Assembly: GCA_030668825.1 (NCBI GenBank)
Contig: DAOVET010000009.1
Coordinates: 1 to 54,605, forward strand
DNA: 54,605 nucleotides
Direction of reading: 5' to 3'
Source of the DNA: Candidatus Heimdallarchaeota archaeon
GTDB taxonomy: Archaea > Asgardarchaeota > Heimdallarchaeia > Heimdallarchaeales > Heimdallarchaeaceae
The notes under the pieces were generated by a model. The model saw only the letters and a list, made by a program, of their open reading frames with translations. It ran no database searches and was not told the DNA's origin. Both the position numbers and the translations under genes were made by a program. Shown here piece after piece: positions 13,541-20,805 of this stretch; the stretch's first letter is position 1, and every line of letters begins with the position of its first letter.

Positions 13541-16291
13541 TTGTCCCCAGAAGATAGTAGGCGCAAAGAGAGTAAAAAATTAGAGAAAGACTATGATGAA
13601 GAGCTTTCTCAAATTGCGACTAAATATAATATTGAATTTGATAATGATAGAGAAACTCTTTCTATTAATTTAGCTCTAAAAGGACAAGAAGCTTTAACCA
13701 AAGGTCAAATCGAAACAGCAGAAGAAATATGTGATGTACTTTATAATCTCGCAAGTAAGTGGAAAGATGACTTTACAAAAATGAAAACACTACTACTAAA
13801 TGCTCAGATAGCAAACTACAAGGGAGAATCGCAGTTAGAACATCTTGAAAACGCTCTTTCCTTAGCTAAAAAAATCAAAATTATTGATATTGAAATTGGA
13901 ATAAGGGTTCAACTAGCTTTTGATTATTACAAAAGACGAACCTACAAGAAAGTTCTCAGAGAGATTAAGAAAATCCAAAAACATCCCGAGTTTTTCTCTG
14001 AAAATGCAACAATAGTTCTTGAGCTACAATCTAGAACCTATTGGGAAACAGATGAATATATCAAGGGATTTGACTCTACTCTTAAGTGGTTTGACGTTCT
14101 AAAAAACTCTCTAAGAGATGTACATTCGCTTTTTCTTGTTATTGTTTACCTTCTAACTGTAATGAATTCTTTAGATCTCCCATATGCTAAAAAGAAGCTT
14201 GATGAGATTAAGAATAGCATTTCAGGTCTTTTAATAGAATTAGGTTCAGCTTCCCATTTATTTTCAGAAATACTGATAAATATTGATGTTTTGTTTGCCA
14301 AATCCCTTATGCTTGTAGAACCCGAAATCTTGTATCAATTTGCAGATTTACTAATACAATCTTCCAGATGGAATGATGAGGAAAAGTACTTATTTTTGTG
14401 TCAAAAACTGTCAGATGCCTTTTATAATATTAACGACTTTAAAAAAGCTCAAAACTTAATGGAAAAAGCATATCAGTTTGCTAAAGAGAAAAAGTATTCC
14501 GAAATTGAATCTCTTATTAGATATAAAATGACAGAGATTTCCAGTTTGATATTTTATTTTATGTCTTTCAATCCTCTATTTGATCCATTTAGCGCAAAAT
14601 CTATTACAATAAATACTGATGATCTCAAGAAACAGTCGTATTTACAAGTCATGAGCCCCATTACGAATAATTTTCCTACAACTTCTTATTCACAGTTTCT
14701 AAGAATTATCGAAAAAGCTTCATATAGTTATATACATGAAAAATCACTGAAAATCGAAGGATTTACTGTTGAAGAAGAACGGTGTTTTTTCGTTCTTGAT
14801 TTAGAGATAGAAAACGAAAGAATAATGCTTCTTATGAAAGAAGATTTCAAAGTAGATCCTGCAGAATATAAGACATTACACTCAACTTTATCTCCCTATT
14901 ATTCAGTTATTGGTTTATTATCAGATGAAAGAAAAAGTACAATGAACGAAATTGATGAAATAGAAAAAGTTTTACTTAAAGTTCAAAGAGCTATCAATTG
15001 TCCTGCTTCTAAGGCTATTATTTACCTGCCTGAGAAAAATCCTCAACTAAATCTATTCCGATTTTATCTCCAAGAGAGTGGTTTTAGAGATCTTAAAGTT
15101 AAAATCTTGGATTCAGTCTTAAAATTAAAGACTTCATTTGATTTCCTGAAAATTCCTGATATTTTACAAATTTTTCAAGCAGATCCTATAACCATCTTTG
15201 ATTTATCTCTAAGAGATGCTGATAATCTGAACCCATTATCAAAATTAATTACTCATGCTTACGGATTCAATGTATCATCTGAAACAATGCACGATTTCTT
15301 CCAAGCATTAATTGAAGATTTCCTAAAGAGAAGTGATACTAGATTCTGGAAAGATTTTTACTATCAATATGCTTGGGTGCAAACTAAAGGAATATACCTA
15401 TCTCTATCAAATGAGTTCCTTGAGAAGAAAAAAGCTTTAAATGATAAATTGGTTGAAATTGCAAATAAACTAGGTGAGGGAGAGAAAATTTTGGAGAGCC
15501 TATATTATCGAACCTTTATGGGAATTGTTGCTAAGAGTGATAATTTCATGCAAGATTTCGAGGTTCTTAAATCAAAATTAAACGATCATGAAAGCAGGAA
15601 ATTTAGTGTTATATCTAAAATTATCCAGCTTTTTAAAGATGAAAATTTAGATGAGGAGTACAATCTGGTTGAAACTCTTAATTTGCTCTGTGAATTATGT
15701 GAATTCAAAGATTGGGATATTTTATTAGAATTATTTATCTATCTTCTTGGCGAGTTACAGGAGATTAAACCTCTATTTGAAATATGTAAAGAGAGAGATG
15801 TTAAAGACAGTGGAATATATCTGTACCTGCACCTAATTAAACACTTAATCAAAATTGAGAGACATGATTCAGCAAGTGAACTGCTAAGTTGGGTTCTCAA
15901 TACAATAAATAGTCGGAAAGAGAAGTTTCACTTCTCTAAACACATTTGGGATTATCTATTTGTTACAGCAAACATGTATATGTATTCCCTTACTAGTGAA
16001 GTTCCTGATGAAACCTTAAAGAAATTTGGTGTGGATAAAAATGACGTTATTCGAAGCTTATTAGATAAAAAAGAATGGATTACTGATCCTTTATTCCTTG
16101 TTGAAATTCTTAACGATTATATCTTAACATTACTTGATAAATCGAACTTCTCTGAGGCTGAAAAACATTATCGCTGGGTTGAGCAATTAATGTTCTATTA
16201 CTGGGATATATTCACGAATGAAAATAATAAAGATTTACTGAAAAACGTTAATGAAATTAAAAAGAAAATCGAAAGTCAACACTTAATATAA
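13541..16291 (+). CDS. Large hypothetical protein, alpha-solenoid/TPR-like ends
   Basis: 916-aa ORF with helical-repeat patterns; no catalytic motif recognised. Confidence 0.6.
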   Translation: MSPEDSRRKESKKLEKDYDEELSQIATKYNIEFDNDRETLSINLALKGQEALTKGQIETAEEICDVLYNLASKWKDDFTKMKTLLLNAQIANYKGESQLEHLENALSLAKKIKIIDIEIGIRVQLAFDYYKRRTYKKVLREIKKIQKHPEFFSENATIVLELQSRTYWETDEYIKGFDSTLKWFDVLKNSLRDVHSLFLVIVYLLTVMNSLDLPYAKKKLDEIKNSISGLLIELGSASHLFSEILINIDVLFAKSLMLVEPEILYQFADLLIQSSRWNDEEKYLFLCQKLSDAFYNINDFKKAQNLMEKAYQFAKEKKYSEIESLIRYKMTEISSLIFYFMSFNPLFDPFSAKSITINTDDLKKQSYLQVMSPITNNFPTTSYSQFLRIIEKASYSYIHEKSLKIEGFTVEEERCFFVLDLEIENERIMLLMKEDFKVDPAEYKTLHSTLSPYYSVIGLLSDERKSTMNEIDEIEKVLLKVQRAINCPASKAIIYLPEKNPQLNLFRFYLQESGFRDLKVKILDSVLKLKTSFDFLKIPDILQIFQADPITIFDLSLRDADNLNPLSKLITHAYGFNVSSETMHDFFQALIEDFLKRSDTRFWKDFYYQYAWVQTKGIYLSLSNEFLEKKKALNDKLVEIANKLGEGEKILESLYYRTFMGIVAKSDNFMQDFEVLKSKLNDHESRKFSVISKIIQLFKDENLDEEYNLVETLNLLCELCEFKDWDILLELFIYLLGELQEIKPLFEICKERDVKDSGIYLYLHLIKHLIKIERHDSASELLSWVLNTINSRKEKFHFSKHIWDYLFVTANMYMYSLTSEVPDETLKKFGVDKNDVIRSLLDKKEWITDPLFLVEILNDYILTLLDKSNFSEAEKHYRWVEQLMFYYWDIFTNENNKDLLKNVNEIKKKIESQHLI

Positions 16292-16549: not shown

Positions 16550-19159
16550 ATGTCTTCTGAACACGATATAGCTATAATCTCTGTGGGGTACAGGGACAGT
16601 CCTTTCACAAAAGAAATAATTCAAAATGACATAATCCCTTATTCCATTGTAGCTAATAACTCAAGTGATTTCCAAATCCATCACGCTGATCCCTCAAAGA
16701 TACTTCTTTACAGCCTTGAATTCACCAACATAATTGAAATTATTGCTAAGAAAAGCATGGATTCATTAGCAGTTTTCGAAACCCTAGGACAATTTTTTGA
16801 ATTTTACAATCCCTTACATCTTTCAACACTTAATTACCTAATATCAAAATATGCGACTAGTATAAAACCTAAAAAAAAGGGATACATGCAGGCATGGAAA
16901 AACATCACTACAGCCATATTTGACAGTGAATTTATTTACCCATTATTTGAAGAGAGTAGAATTTTCCATATTAAAGAAGGAGAAGTGGAAATTCCAGTAC
17001 GTCAATTCCTAATCTCTTCTGAATTAGAAGAGCAAAAAGGAAACTCAAAGAATAACAATAAAGCTCTAAATCAAGTTCTTGAAGATATTTCAGGTATAAT
17101 AGATCTTGAAGAAACTAGTAAAATGAAAATAAGCTCTAGTGCTGTAAGAAAAATCACATCAGCAACAGCTGTTATCATAATTCCAACAGATATAGTTTCT
17201 TTATTCATTTTGTTCAATTCCAATCACTTTAAAGAAACTTTACAAAAATCTGATGGAAAAATAGCTATCATTTCCCCATTCTGGCCTGGAAATGAGATTA
17301 GTAGAATTGAACGAACAATACTACAAAAAACAAATTTTGAAGCAAATCTTGTAAATGTTGCAAAATTGGTTAAAGACTGTGTGGATGCAGTAATAATTGA
17401 TACAAAAGACAGTGATTTAGTTCCTTCTCTTAGAGAAGAAGGGATTACTGTTTTAGTGGAAGATTTATCTCCAAAAAACCAATCAACACAAGAATTTCTG
17501 GATACAGTTCTGAAAAGTATTGACATTTCGTTAGATACAATCGCTATTGAACCTCAAGGTTTGATTGAAGGTTTAGGAGAAAAACTTGTCAATTTATTTA
17601 GAGTTCGAGAACCTAAACAAGAAAAAGAAGAAGTTAAGACTCTTGAAATCTCAATTAAAGAGGAAGATCTAGAACTTATAGAATCAATATTTGAGGAAGG
17701 AATTTCAGTAGATGAACCAAAGGAAATGGAAACTGAAATATCTGAAGATTTATCTGAATCTGATGCTCTTACCGACGAGTTTGAAATGGAAGTAATTGAT
17801 ACTGAAGAAACTATTCAAACAATACCTACTCCACCTCCAAAAGATGCAGGTGTGGATGGTGAATTTTATTACCAAAAAGCTGAAGGTCAGTTCGTACTAC
17901 CAGGTATTGAACAAATTACACAATTTGAATTGGAAGAACTAGATTCTTTAGATGTCGATGAACACATCATAACTTCTTTTATTGAAAGAGCAATGACAAG
18001 CAATGCAACAGGGGTGGAGGTTGTTTTTTCTGATTTGTTGTCTTTACAAAACAATCCTCTATTAATAGATAAGATCTTCCAAACGATACTCAAGCGATTG
18101 ATAAAATTTAGAGATTTAAATCCAGAAGAGAAAATTGCTGATATGATTACCTATTTATCAGCTCACAAGCCTGAGTATTATCACGAAAAGCTGAACAATT
18201 TGCTTGAAGATACTCTTAATTCTGAAGAAGAAAAAGAATTCTATCAGAATCTAAAAACAACTTCTCTAGTTGTTAGAAGTTCTTTACTTATTGCAGGAGA
18301 GGTAATTGAGAAATTCTTGCAAAAGAATATTGTCACTTCAGATGCTTATATTGAAGATAGACTGAAACGCATGGTTAATGCTTTTGGAGTTGCCAATATC
18401 GACTTATTACAATTATTATGCAGAATTCTTGTGAATATATACAAACAAGAATTGGAAAAGGAAGAATCAGATGAAACTATAACTCGAAGAATTATTTCAT
18501 TTTTGACTATGTTTGATGGACTTAGTGTAGCCATATCTTTGGTAACATTAGGGTCAGAAACAGCAGTAGAATCTATTACAGATGCCATTAAGAAAATGGC
18601 TTTGAATAACTCCTTTAAGAAGATAATTACAGATGTTTTAACTGTCTTCAACGAAGGTTCTTATGAGGATCTGGTGAAAGCTTTTCAAGGACGTATTTTG
18701 CCCGAAAACGTCGAATTTGAGATGATGAAAAAGAAATACATCACTAGTCTTTCAAAAGTGGGTTCAATACCATTAGAACTATTCGCTGAAAGAATTGGAT
18801 TATCAGTTGATAAAGCAGAAAAAATGATTTATGATATGATTTTGCAAGAAGAAATTCCAGCAAGAATCGAATTAGTTAGTGGAAGACTCTATATCGTTCA
18901 AGATATTGAAGAAGCTGAGGTTATAACAGAAGGGTCAACTGAAGAGATAACAAGAGAGACCAAGGAAACTCTTGAAAAAACTGATGAAAAAGTAGAACAA
19001 CTTGATCAGGAAGAAGTTACAGAGACACTCGAAGAACATCCTGAGCAAAAACGAACTAAAGAGATTTTAGAGAAAGAATTTGCTTGTACTCAATGCCAGA
19101 AATCTTTCAAGACAGAAAGAGGTTTAAAAATGCATGTAAGCAGGGTTCATAAAGAATAA
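16550..19159 (+). CDS. Multidomain protein: degenerate CofD-like domain, acidic linker, helical region, PCI-like winged helix, C2H2 zinc finger
   Basis: N-terminal ~325 aa colinear with CofD; SIPLELFAERIGLSVDKAEKMIYDMILQEEIPARIE; FACTQCQKSFKTERGLKMHVSRVH. Confidence 0.7.
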   Translation: MSSEHDIAIISVGYRDSPFTKEIIQNDIIPYSIVANNSSDFQIHHADPSKILLYSLEFTNIIEIIAKKSMDSLAVFETLGQFFEFYNPLHLSTLNYLISKYATSIKPKKKGYMQAWKNITTAIFDSEFIYPLFEESRIFHIKEGEVEIPVRQFLISSELEEQKGNSKNNNKALNQVLEDISGIIDLEETSKMKISSSAVRKITSATAVIIIPTDIVSLFILFNSNHFKETLQKSDGKIAIISPFWPGNEISRIERTILQKTNFEANLVNVAKLVKDCVDAVIIDTKDSDLVPSLREEGITVLVEDLSPKNQSTQEFLDTVLKSIDISLDTIAIEPQGLIEGLGEKLVNLFRVREPKQEKEEVKTLEISIKEEDLELIESIFEEGISVDEPKEMETEISEDLSESDALTDEFEMEVIDTEETIQTIPTPPPKDAGVDGEFYYQKAEGQFVLPGIEQITQFELEELDSLDVDEHIITSFIERAMTSNATGVEVVFSDLLSLQNNPLLIDKIFQTILKRLIKFRDLNPEEKIADMITYLSAHKPEYYHEKLNNLLEDTLNSEEEKEFYQNLKTTSLVVRSSLLIAGEVIEKFLQKNIVTSDAYIEDRLKRMVNAFGVANIDLLQLLCRILVNIYKQELEKEESDETITRRIISFLTMFDGLSVAISLVTLGSETAVESITDAIKKMALNNSFKKIITDVLTVFNEGSYEDLVKAFQGRILPENVEFEMMKKKYITSLSKVGSIPLELFAERIGLSVDKAEKMIYDMILQEEIPARIELVSGRLYIVQDIEEAEVITEGSTEEITRETKETLEKTDEKVEQLDQEEVTETLEEHPEQKRTKEILEKEFACTQCQKSFKTERGLKMHVSRVHKE

Positions 19160-19242: not shown

Positions 19243-19758
19243 ATGAGAAAATTCCAGATTGCTGTAATAGGTTCGGGGAATATCTTAGAAGATTCAGAAG
19301 AGTATTTGTTAGCAAAAAAATTGGGGAAACGATTAGTTGACAAAGATTTCATAATTTTATGTGGAGGATTGAAAGGGGTGATGAAAGCTGTATGTGAGGG
19401 AGCTAAGGAATCTAAGAAGTATTCTTATGGGCAGACAATAGGCATTCTTCCATCATTAGATAAATCCTCTGCTAATCCTTTTGTTGATATACAAATCTCA
19501 ACTGGAATGTCCAACGCTAGAAATCAAATAATCATTGCTTCCGCTGATGCAGTTATTGTGGTTCGTGGAGGTGCGGGAACTTTATCTGAAATTTCATATG
19601 CCTGGCAAATGAATAAGACAATAATTTCACTCAAGAAATCGGGAGGATGGGCAGAAAAACTAGCTGACTCAAAAATAGACGGAAGTAGAAAAGATAAAAT
19701 TATCTCTGCTTCATCTGTAGCAGATGTTTTGAAGCACTTAGAAAAAATCATAATCTGA
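19243..19758 (+). CDS. TIGR00725/LOG-like (SLOG) nucleotide-binding protein
   Basis: IAVIGS, CGGLKGVMKAV, ARNQII, GGAGTLSE. Confidence 0.88.
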   Translation: MRKFQIAVIGSGNILEDSEEYLLAKKLGKRLVDKDFIILCGGLKGVMKAVCEGAKESKKYSYGQTIGILPSLDKSSANPFVDIQISTGMSNARNQIIIASADAVIVVRGGAGTLSEISYAWQMNKTIISLKKSGGWAEKLADSKIDGSRKDKIISASSVADVLKHLEKIII

Positions 19759-19803: not shown

Positions 19804-20805
19804 ATGCTAATTTGTTTGTTCAGGTTAGAGGATGTTGGTCCAAACTTAGTCGAAATGGTATTAGACAGAAATGTTGAATTTGATCAGGATACAATAGATA
19901 AATTCACATTCTCAGGATCAGTTACTTATTCTCTAGTTTTTCAAGGAATGATTACCCTTGATGACATGGCTTCAGAACTTTATGGTCCTTTTCCATTTGC
20001 TTTTTCTTCAGGTTTTGTTCAATATGCCTTTTCATTTATTGCTGCTGATAAGACTATGAAAGACAAAAGGATGAAAGAAAAAACCCTAGGTTTAATTATT
20101 ATGCTTGTACCAGAAATGGTTTCAAAGATAGATACCTTTAGAGAAGAACTAGCTAAGGTTCTTTTATATAAGTTTCATAAAGTTTACAAAATAAGTCAAG
20201 TTAACAAAGTTTTCCTACAAGATATCATTAGCTCCTATAATAAGATATTACAGGACCTCCTAAGTTTTAAGCAAGCAGATTTATTATCTGAACAGATACT
20301 AGAGTTTCTACAAGTAAAAGAAAAGCCCAAAAAGAAAAAAACCATTATTGATATTGGAGTTATATATCCTAAAGAACACACTAGTTTTATCAAGAAATAC
20401 TATGCTTCCTTATTGGGTTCCTTACCTTATACCGAAACCGCTTATTCGAAAGACAAAGCAGTAATCAAAACTCAAACACATGAGTTTAGTTTTGTTATGG
20501 ATTCGAAAGTTGAAGATAATTATTTGAATAAACAAAGTGCATTAATTCTCTTAGCAAATGTTAAAGGAAAGAAATACTCAACTCTTTATCAAGTGTTAAA
20601 AGAACTCAAGTCTAAACCTAAGATAGCATTAGTCGTTTCCCTTCCAGACAATATTGAAAAAGCAAGTGGTGAGTATGCTAAATTCTTTACAGGTCTTCAA
20701 AGATACATTGGTGATTTGCCCTTCTTTTCTGCAAGTTTTAGTACAAATTATGAGTTTAAAACAAAAATGTTAGAAGCTCTTTTTTGGACACTTTCACCAG
20801 ATTAA
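19804..20805 (+). CDS. Hypothetical: longin/uDENN-like N-domain plus degenerate small-GTPase-like C-domain
   Basis: LFRLEDVGP, YGPFPF, MKDKR; C-half alternating beta/alpha ending LPFFSAS. Confidence 0.5.
   Translation: MLICLFRLEDVGPNLVEMVLDRNVEFDQDTIDKFTFSGSVTYSLVFQGMITLDDMASELYGPFPFAFSSGFVQYAFSFIAADKTMKDKRMKEKTLGLIIMLVPEMVSKIDTFREELAKVLLYKFHKVYKISQVNKVFLQDIISSYNKILQDLLSFKQADLLSEQILEFLQVKEKPKKKKTIIDIGVIYPKEHTSFIKKYYASLLGSLPYTETAYSKDKAVIKTQTHEFSFVMDSKVEDNYLNKQSALILLANVKGKKYSTLYQVLKELKSKPKIALVVSLPDNIEKASGEYAKFFTGLQRYIGDLPFFSASFSTNYEFKTKMLEALFWTLSPD

Follow-up and report, generated by a model that had tools for sequence, protein, structure and literature searches.

A diverged CofD-superfamily domain joined to a PCI module and a C2H2 zinc finger in Heimdallarchaeial archaea

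What is a domain of the CofD type, known from F420 synthesis, doing at the front of a protein whose other parts recall eukaryotic scaffold subunits? The question is raised by an open reading frame (ORF) of 869 amino acids (aa; protein P0001) in a stretch of 54,605 nucleotides (nt) from a Candidatus Heimdallarchaeota archaeon (contig DAOVET010000009.1 of assembly GCA_030668825.1), which we refer to at its full length as the window. The gene lies on contig C116 of a genome of 2.76 Mb that is 90.6% complete. An earlier reading of the letters by a model (hereafter the sequence-only reading) had placed the ORF at 16550..19159 on the forward strand and had described it as a dead CofD enzyme followed by an acidic linker, a helical region with a winged helix of the PCI type, and a C2H2 finger. 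The ORF is exactly as claimed, the order of the domains is correct, and all six of the CofD-like motifs that were quoted stand in the translation, namely IAIISVG (aa 7-13), IVANNSSDF (33-41), IYPLFEE (129-135), VIIIPTD (208-214), IISPF (240-244) and VDAVIIDTKD (278-287); the overlapping antisense ORFs of 63-101 aa are unsupported. The protein is a new domain architecture of known parts that is conserved in Heimdallarchaeial lineages, with full-length orthologues at 56-99% identity and with closest relatives that are annotated as Candidatus Heimdallarchaeaceae. We propose, at a probability of roughly 0.4, that it is a modular non-canonical regulator or scaffold and not an F420 biosynthetic enzyme.

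The N-terminal head belongs, in diverged form, to the CofD superfamily. Our comparison set consists of 33 aligned family members and 24 canonical CofDs, 21 of the latter supplied by genomes of the same class and the other three by a search of representative proteins, and hhalign aligns the head (aa 6-324) with the 24 CofDs (positions 1-308) over 286 columns with a probability of 99.2% and an E value of 1.7e-18. With an AlphaFold 2 (AF2) model of aa 1-345 as query (predicted local distance difference test, pLDDT, 83.8; predicted template-modelling score, pTM, 0.87), Foldseek returns the CofD of M. mazei first (3cgw/3c3d/3c3e; E 2.8e-13, template-modelling score, TM, 0.67/0.76) and FbiA second (E 1.6e-9). 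Structures of the UPF0052/YvcK type rank below both of these (E 1.4e-8 to 4e-5, TM 0.43-0.58) and the NCBIfam scan of the 869-aa protein gave no UPF0052-type match, so that a head closer to UPF0052, YvcK or GlmR than to CofD was rejected. By family models the divergence is large, as the NCBIfam model TIGR01819 (F420_cofD) matches aa 185-303 with 29 bits (E 5e-7), far below the 257.45 bits that mark membership, and the Pfam scan of the protein gave no match to PF01933 at E up to 1. The CofD likeness that the sequence-only reading saw in the N-terminal domain extends over its whole length, and a fold other than that of CofD, which it had named as the finding that would speak against it, is not what the searches return.

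Much of the CofD signature has been replaced in the head. The signature motifs were taken from the columns in which conservation across the 24 CofDs reaches 90% or more, which is not a published definition; the joint MAFFT alignment has 52 such columns, and the close family keeps 14 of them while the distant PCI-linked subfamily keeps 10. The GGTG loop had been reported as missing and is indeed gone, since SGGTGTPK has become SVGYRDSP, and in the same way WF-LGDxD is replaced by PL-LSTLN, FQE by VRQ, PSNPxxSIGP by PTD-IVSLFI and SGP by SRI, with W-G, R100 and SIGP as further conserved features that are lost. The N-to-D change in PTDIVS is universal across the PCI-linked clade. The CofD-conserved residues that the head retains are G13, N36, D40, D47, P131, P212, S217, S242-P243 and D287. 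The conserved acidic residues had also been read as lost, and this holds only in part: the D45 equivalent (now S39) and LGDxD are gone, but D40 aligns with D46 of FbiA and D47 with D57, in a region (aa 36-50) where the confidence of hhalign is moderate. The part of the FbiA study that deals with the active site has Asp45 and Asp57 coordinating the catalytic metal, Asp57 as a bidentate ligand (PMC7253369). Both D40 and D47 are invariant in the close family, D40, R151 and D214 stand at 100% in both PCI-linked subfamilies, and D214, S217, S242-P243, R151 and E254 are conserved throughout the clade or nearly so, while conservation of the D57 equivalent breaks down in the distant subfamily (E at 35%). 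That the head is a "dead" enzyme is what we would infer from motif loss only, and there is room for a new activity because no other part of the protein is as well conserved and because the head has invariant polar residues of its own.

The extent of this conservation is seen in the full-length alignment (A1), in which 45 of the 49 invariant columns are in the head (D40 to F316), and the heads are 43-92% identical to that of the query, as against 26-92% for the C-terminal part. The polar residues among the invariant ones are D40, H45, D47, K50, E57, E77, N87, E135, R137, H140, E147, R151, D185, D214, S217, E254 and D279. By alignment, the invariant head residues map onto segments 69-102, 145-189 and 239-254 of FbiA, and in the published description of that structure the first two segments form the deazaflavin pocket and the loop 239-254 encloses GDP (PMC7253369). 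A quick maximum-likelihood tree of 60 rows, which is unrooted and in which five long branches were flagged, splits the 24 canonical CofDs from 35 rows by a branch with a Shimodaira-Hasegawa-like approximate likelihood ratio (SH-aLRT) support of 99. On the side of the 35 rows are 15 heads of the close family, 18 of the 19 distant-match rows and two stand-alone Sigyn-like paralogues, and P0105 is a long branch on the CofD side. The tree suggests that the PCI-linked heads may be one clade apart from the canonical CofDs.

As a separate observation on the head, two loci labelled Sigynarchaeum or Promethearchaeota (L030 8319-10961 and L031 3500-6225) carry a stand-alone head paralogue of 366-368 aa two genes downstream of the fused gene, with a 505-aa octopine-dehydrogenase-like NAD(P) enzyme between the two. 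These stand-alone copies nest within the fused clade in the quick tree.

The predicted structure of the C-terminal half is that of a complete PCI module, with a solenoid and a winged helix. The sequence-only reading had a PCI-type winged helix at ~18720-18905, and the Pfam PCI model (PF01399) places it at aa 724-782 (nt 18719-18895) with 30.6 bits against a cut-off of 22; a scan of the genome with the PCI profile gives 33.5 bits at 18716-18895. The AF2 model of aa 455-869 (pLDDT 77 overall and 80-95 across the PCI module) has about sixteen helices and after them the series helix-strand-helix-helix-strand-strand, with a beta-beta-alpha unit beyond a disordered stretch. With the PCI-module model, Foldseek finds 51 matches in the PDB at E up to 0.001, with alignments of 250-535 columns, and 41 of the best 44 are from entries that contain the 26S proteasome or its lid, the COP9 signalosome or eIF3, in a tally that places each match by its PDB entry and not by the identity of the chain; of the other three, two are designed armadillo proteins and one is unplaced. 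CSN7 (4d10_G) superposes on the module with a root-mean-square deviation of 3.0 A over 120 residues. A generic helix-turn-helix (HTH) domain at the C-terminus, the other outcome that the sequence-only reading had named as contrary to it, is not supported, as the Foldseek list is specific for PCI-type complexes and a full solenoid is found together with the winged helix.

The acidic linker reported after the head is borne out by composition, aa 346-470 having 39 D+E against 9 K+R, and the motif LTDEFEMEVIDTE within it is conserved as far as the Heimdallarchaeum orthologues, where it takes the form xFEMEV. A complex prediction for the linker (aa 392-445) and the PCI module (aa 455-800) scored 0.00 and, made without controls, says nothing either way. 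The genome, including the 869-aa ORF, has no match to the DSS1/Sem1-like PF05160 at E up to 1, and its two JAB/MPN ORFs lie on contigs other than that of the fused gene. A second PCI-like ORF on contig C20 (14.7 bits), which has several winged-helix-like segments, was set aside as unrelated. A search of shorter proteins for stand-alone PCI modules, which is sensitive only to relatives that share words, gave 11 matches, of which five are labelled 'partial' and the others resemble truncated copies of the same family.

At the extreme C-terminus, the CxxC-x12-H-x4-H finger of the sequence-only reading is present as C846/C849/H862/H867, and together with F844, F853 and L859 these residues have the classical C2H2 spacing and core. 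The finger is a beta-beta-alpha unit in the AF2 model (pLDDT about 90), and the Pfam zf-C2H2 models score it at 17.5-18.7 bits, below their gathering cut-offs of 22.6-27, while in orthologue P0036 the finger reaches 27.5 bits with PF13912, above the cut-off of 25. Among 69 proteins (P0001-P0069, the query and 68 relatives) the tail is a C2H2 finger in 36, a Lys-rich tail with repeats of the KKPxxTKK type (K+R at least 0.27) in 14, and a helix-hairpin-helix (HhH) tail (PF14520; P0057 with 31.2 bits against 27) in seven. Three of the Lys-rich tails were scanned, and those of P0031 and P0044 match the histone-H1-like HC2 below threshold while that of P0049 has no match. In four Sigyn-like proteins the chain stops 13 residues past the winged helix, and tails of other kinds are found in P0040, P0051, P0052 and P0064; for P0053, P0054, P0055 and P0067, three of them labelled partial, the end of the winged helix was not located. 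The tail is taken to bind DNA or RNA because three unrelated modules of nucleic-acid type share the same position, and the exchange suggests a role in nucleic-acid binding. The 830-aa protein P0040 ends in a hydrophobic, transmembrane-like stretch where others have a finger or a basic tail.

The distribution of the family was determined with its profile in 400 genomes of the phylum, as the sequence-only reading had advised. The profile matches at full length in 29 of the 30 genomes from the same family. A second family (f21) has strong matches in all four of its genomes, apparently the loci labelled Sigynarchaeum and Promethearchaeota, and the matches are weaker in families f2-f5 within the class, where the N- and C-terminal parts are in single ORFs of ~730-890 aa. 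The architecture is present in divergent forms across the class. Most other matches in the phylum, some of them in the class, are ORFs of 300-360 aa that match the profile at ~184-330 only and are canonical CofDs. When the head alone was searched against 1.84 billion representatives, 43 proteins were returned, and 12 of the 29 that were scanned carry a PCI match, often with a sub-threshold CofD match. In 11 cold-seep or marine-sediment metagenome runs from four studies (P1-P4) the gene is present in nearly identical copies that share 88% or more of the sampled words, and the window may come from one of three of these samples. None of the runs listed as carriers is recorded as RNA; two runs labelled "RNA-Seq", with five and three short contigs, respectively, were flagged as "probably DNA".

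Two further observations concern the make-up of the gene. In family f7 of the same class a homologous helical and PCI module is found in proteins of ~611 aa (L068 3733-5568; L069 5905-7743) that have no CofD-like head and whose N-terminus weakly matches a PRC-barrel, so that the head of the scaffold seems exchangeable. Two relatives carry the gene as two overlapping or adjacent ORFs or with two in-frame TGA codons (L025 6001-8698; G040 C23 18646-21035), and such copies may reflect assembly error, frameshift or decay.

The separate, intact cofD that the sequence-only reading had proposed to look for is present on another contig (C61) as an ORF of 308 aa that scores 245 bits to the M. mazei CofD and keeps GGTG, SPDxD, LGDKD, PSNP and SGP. 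ORFs of 272 and 206 aa stand in a row with it (L001 8-2352), the latter two genes away; we take the 206-aa ORF to be cofC-like, and the 272-aa ORF presumably resembles a TIM-barrel protein. Canonical CofD is above the cut-off in 77 of the 83 genomes of the class.

With these parts in hand, the regulator or scaffold that we propose could work as follows. The CofD-derived head would no longer carry out LPPG:Fo phospholactate transfer, but its remodelled active-site cleft, which includes D40 and D47 and the invariant E77, N87, E135, R137, H140, E147, R151, D185, D214, S217 and E254, may still bind a phosphorylated or nucleotide-type small molecule, and the head would probably dimerise in the manner of CofD and FbiA. 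The long acidic linkers would tether the head to the PCI module, which may recruit protein partners, the TPR-like protein of 916 aa that is encoded directly upstream being the first candidate, and the C-terminal finger could anchor the assembly on DNA or RNA. The net effect would be a metabolite-responsive scaffold tethered to nucleic acid. The idea of the sequence-only reading, an enzyme of the F420 pathway that was exapted as a ligand sensor, has no direct support, and the co-occurrence of CofD cannot discriminate it because canonical CofD is near-universal in the class.

Several observations weigh against the proposed regulator or scaffold. It is from the alignment and not from coordinates that the invariant head residues are inferred to line one cleft. 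In the C-terminal half, the Z scores of 9-11.6 that VIA-align gives for the PCI module, with compact matches that consist of the last repeats and the winged helix, lie within the quoted background for helical repeats (Z below about 13), and the sequence profile of the family gave no match to PDB chains at E up to 10, so that the PCI assignment rests on one Pfam match together with the fold searches. The 869-aa ORF is the sole one over the PCI cut-off in the genome, complete to 90.6%, and because of this a eukaryote-like assembly of several PCI proteins is not evident. Members of the distant subfamily are without a nucleic-acid-binding tail, and a hidden Markov model (HMM) of the 916-aa family finds nothing beside the loci of the distant subfamily or the Sigyn-like loci. 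Finally, to judge by the alignments, the retained D40 and D47 and the strong conservation of the head would suit an active enzyme equally well.

The last point leads to a reading in which the head would be neo-functionalised and still active, as a transferase or nucleotidyl-phosphotransferase that has taken on a new substrate and that the PCI module and the finger would merely localise. The alignment of D40 and D47 with D46 and the bidentate metal ligand D57 of FbiA, the residues D214, S217, S242-P243, R151 and E254 that the clade has kept, and the standing of the head as the most conserved region all speak for such an enzyme, as does the report of Listeria GlmR, of the CofD superfamily, as an accessory uridyltransferase (PMC10128056). 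Set against this are the replaced Gly-rich, PSNP, SIGP and SGP loops and the D57 equivalent that the distant subfamily has not conserved, and on balance we find the enzyme somewhat unlikely. At the other end is a head that binds no ligand and is a structural pseudoenzyme for dimerisation or docking, in a protein that is a PCI scaffold or a DNA-binding factor of the winged-HTH/zinc-finger type. CofD and FbiA dimerise through a conserved interface, as described with the FbiA structure (PMC7253369), and heads are exchangeable to judge by the PRC-barrel-like N-terminus that the f7 PCI module (L068) bears; however, most of the invariant residues have polar or charged side chains, and they appear to fall on the former active-site segments and not on the dimer helices, and a purely structural head is in our opinion unlikely.

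If the protein were a further CofD isoenzyme (2-phospho-L-lactate transferase), functional and fused only incidentally, the common fold and the detectable homology would be accounted for, but we regard this as extremely improbable given a score of 29 bits against the 257-bit cut-off of TIGR01819, the lack of a match to PF01933, the change of 38 of the 52 conserved CofD columns, the separate clade of the head, and the canonical cofD that is present in the same genome and in most of the class. A bolder idea is that the family is a surviving archaeal relative of the stock behind the eukaryotic PCI subunits and that in Heimdallarchaeia its PCI module already serves as a platform for recruiting proteins, tethered to nucleic acid and gated by a CofD-derived head that binds a metabolite; the acidic-aromatic motif of the linker would act in cis in the way of the small acidic PCI-binding proteins of eukaryotes. 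This we consider a long shot. The non-canonical regulator or scaffold is the reading that we prefer, and with it the protein would clearly exemplify how the fold of a cofactor-biosynthesis enzyme was recruited into a non-metabolic multidomain protein. It also provides a concrete archaeal protein with a full PCI module for testing PCI-mediated assembly, and the swapping of three nucleic-acid-type tails is a testable functional handle. Its value is that of a well-defined target and not of a solved mechanism, as it is known here from sequences and models alone.

Table 1. Features of the 869-aa gene and of its neighbours (nt positions in the window)
Feature	Position	Strand	Basis or remark
Whole ORF, 869 aa (P0001)	16550..19159	+	CofD-like head, acidic linker, PCI module, acidic linker, C2H2 finger
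CofD-superfamily domain, remodelled, aa 1-335	16550..17554	+	hhalign, Foldseek, sub-threshold TIGR01819, invariant columns
Degenerate glycine-rich loop SVGYRDSP, aa 11-18	16580..16603	+	Replaces CofD SGGTGTPK; only G13 (second G) kept
NNSSD-F...HADPSK, aa 36-50	16655..16699	+	Remnant of CofD NTGDD / SPDxD metal site, by alignment
PTDIVS, aa 212-217	17183..17200	+	Replaces CofD PSNPxxS
Acidic linker 1, aa 346-454 (109 aa), predicted disordered	17585..17911	+	Composition; poorly conserved, gapped in A1
Short conserved motif LTDEFEMEVIDTE, aa 407-419, within linker 1	17768..17806	+	A1 alignment
Helical solenoid of PCI module, aa 461-718	17930..18703	+	AF2 model helices 7-257; Foldseek and VIA alignments over 350-450 columns of PCI subunits
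PCI winged helix, aa 719-785	18704..18904	+	Pfam PF01399; genome scan; CSN7 superposition
Acidic linker 2, aa 786-842, low confidence	18905..19075	+	pLDDT <50 at model residues 336-386; 21 D+E vs 8 K+R
C2H2 zinc finger, aa 844-867	19079..19150	+	F-x-C-x2-C-x3-F-x5-L-x2-H-x4-H; Pfam sub-threshold here
916-aa TPR-like solenoid gene, candidate partner	13541..16291	+	Weak TPR matches only; co-conserved
SLOG cluster-4 (LDcluster4, 136 bits) gene	19243-19758		Between fused and 333-aa genes
333-aa gene	19804..20805	+	No Pfam match, no usable Atlas match

The neighbouring genes (Table 1) were surveyed at 33 related loci, several of which lack a neighbour where they end at contig edges. The 916-aa gene is directly upstream on the same strand in 23 of the 33, including orthologues at 29-31% identity, and the Atlas leads for its product are TPR-like and weak. 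Downstream of the fused gene, the 333-aa gene is present in 20 of the 33 loci, and in ten the SLOG (LDcluster4) gene is inserted between the two; SLOG domains bind nucleotide-derived ligands. The idea that the neighbours are PCI paralogues was rejected, as hhalign against the PCI module gives a probability of only 0.1% for the 916-aa family and 0.5% for the 333-aa family. The other neighbours, an AMP-binding enzyme, a TPR protein, an MR/MLE enolase-superfamily protein and a GNAT protein, point to no pathway. The 258-nt spacer upstream of the fused gene is AT-rich and an oligo-T-rich stretch follows its stop codon, which is compatible with a putative promoter and terminator that belong to this gene only. 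Seven loci of distant lineages have a convergent DUF389 gene just downstream of the fused gene (L061 8541-9545, L026 8896-9864 and L034 8309-9307, and also L062, L065, L066 and L025), and it is absent at that place in the window.

In full-text searches of the literature we found no description of CofD with PCI in Asgard archaea, nothing on Asgard eukaryotic signature proteins with PCI and, for Asgard archaea with PCI, CSN, lid or eIF3, nothing on the 869-aa family, and a search for the PCI winged helix in prokaryotes or archaea gave unrelated work only. A preprint of 2026 on Asgard structural clusters does not mention PCI, signalosome, eIF3 or CofD in its main text, and its supplements could bear on the matter. 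A 2024 survey of ESCRT has PCI-like winged helices in other Asgard proteins, and according to a paper of 2018 no PCI complexes were known from archaea. The PCI match itself is not new, because public annotation already names relatives "PCI domain-containing protein"; for the CofD-derived head and for the whole architecture, no description was found in the literature searched.

Among known systems, the LPPG or EPPG:Fo transferases CofD and FbiA (TIGR01819, PF01933; 3c3d, 6uvx) have the same fold over the whole domain and are homologous to the head. In contrast to them, the head has no GGTG, D45 equivalent, LGDxD, FQE, PSNP, SIGP or SGP, carries a helical insertion of ~20 residues (aa 156-178), is fused to ~530 further residues, and stands in a separate clade far below the family cut-offs. 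The functional analogy that we favor is with GlmR/YvcK (UPF0052; 2o2z, 2ppv, 2q7x), a CofD-superfamily member that serves regulation and not F420 synthesis and is described as a nucleotide-sugar-binding regulator (PMC5482804, PMC7525490). GlmR/YvcK differs in that it is bacterial and stand-alone, has neither a PCI module nor a finger, and is a weaker structural match than CofD.

For the C-terminal half, the eukaryotic PCI subunits (Rpn3/5/6/7/9/12, CSN1-4/7/8, eIF3a/c/e/k/l/m and the TREX-2 PCI proteins) share the solenoid with its winged-helix cap. Their complexes, the lid, CSN and eIF3, have several PCI paralogues and MPN subunits per particle, whereas the protein described here is archaeal, is the sole ORF of its genome over the PCI cut-off, is without a linked MPN subunit, has no sequence match to a solved PCI chain, and has an enzyme-derived head and a zinc finger added. 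Some PCI domains are reported to bind RNA (PMC3315329), which would parallel the nucleic-acid-type tails of the Heimdallarchaeial family. The finger shares the exact spacing, the hydrophobic core and the beta-beta-alpha unit of classical C2H2 fingers of the TFIIIA/Kruppel type, but it is a single finger at the extreme C-terminus, scores below the Pfam thresholds, and is exchanged for HhH or Lys-rich tails in orthologues.

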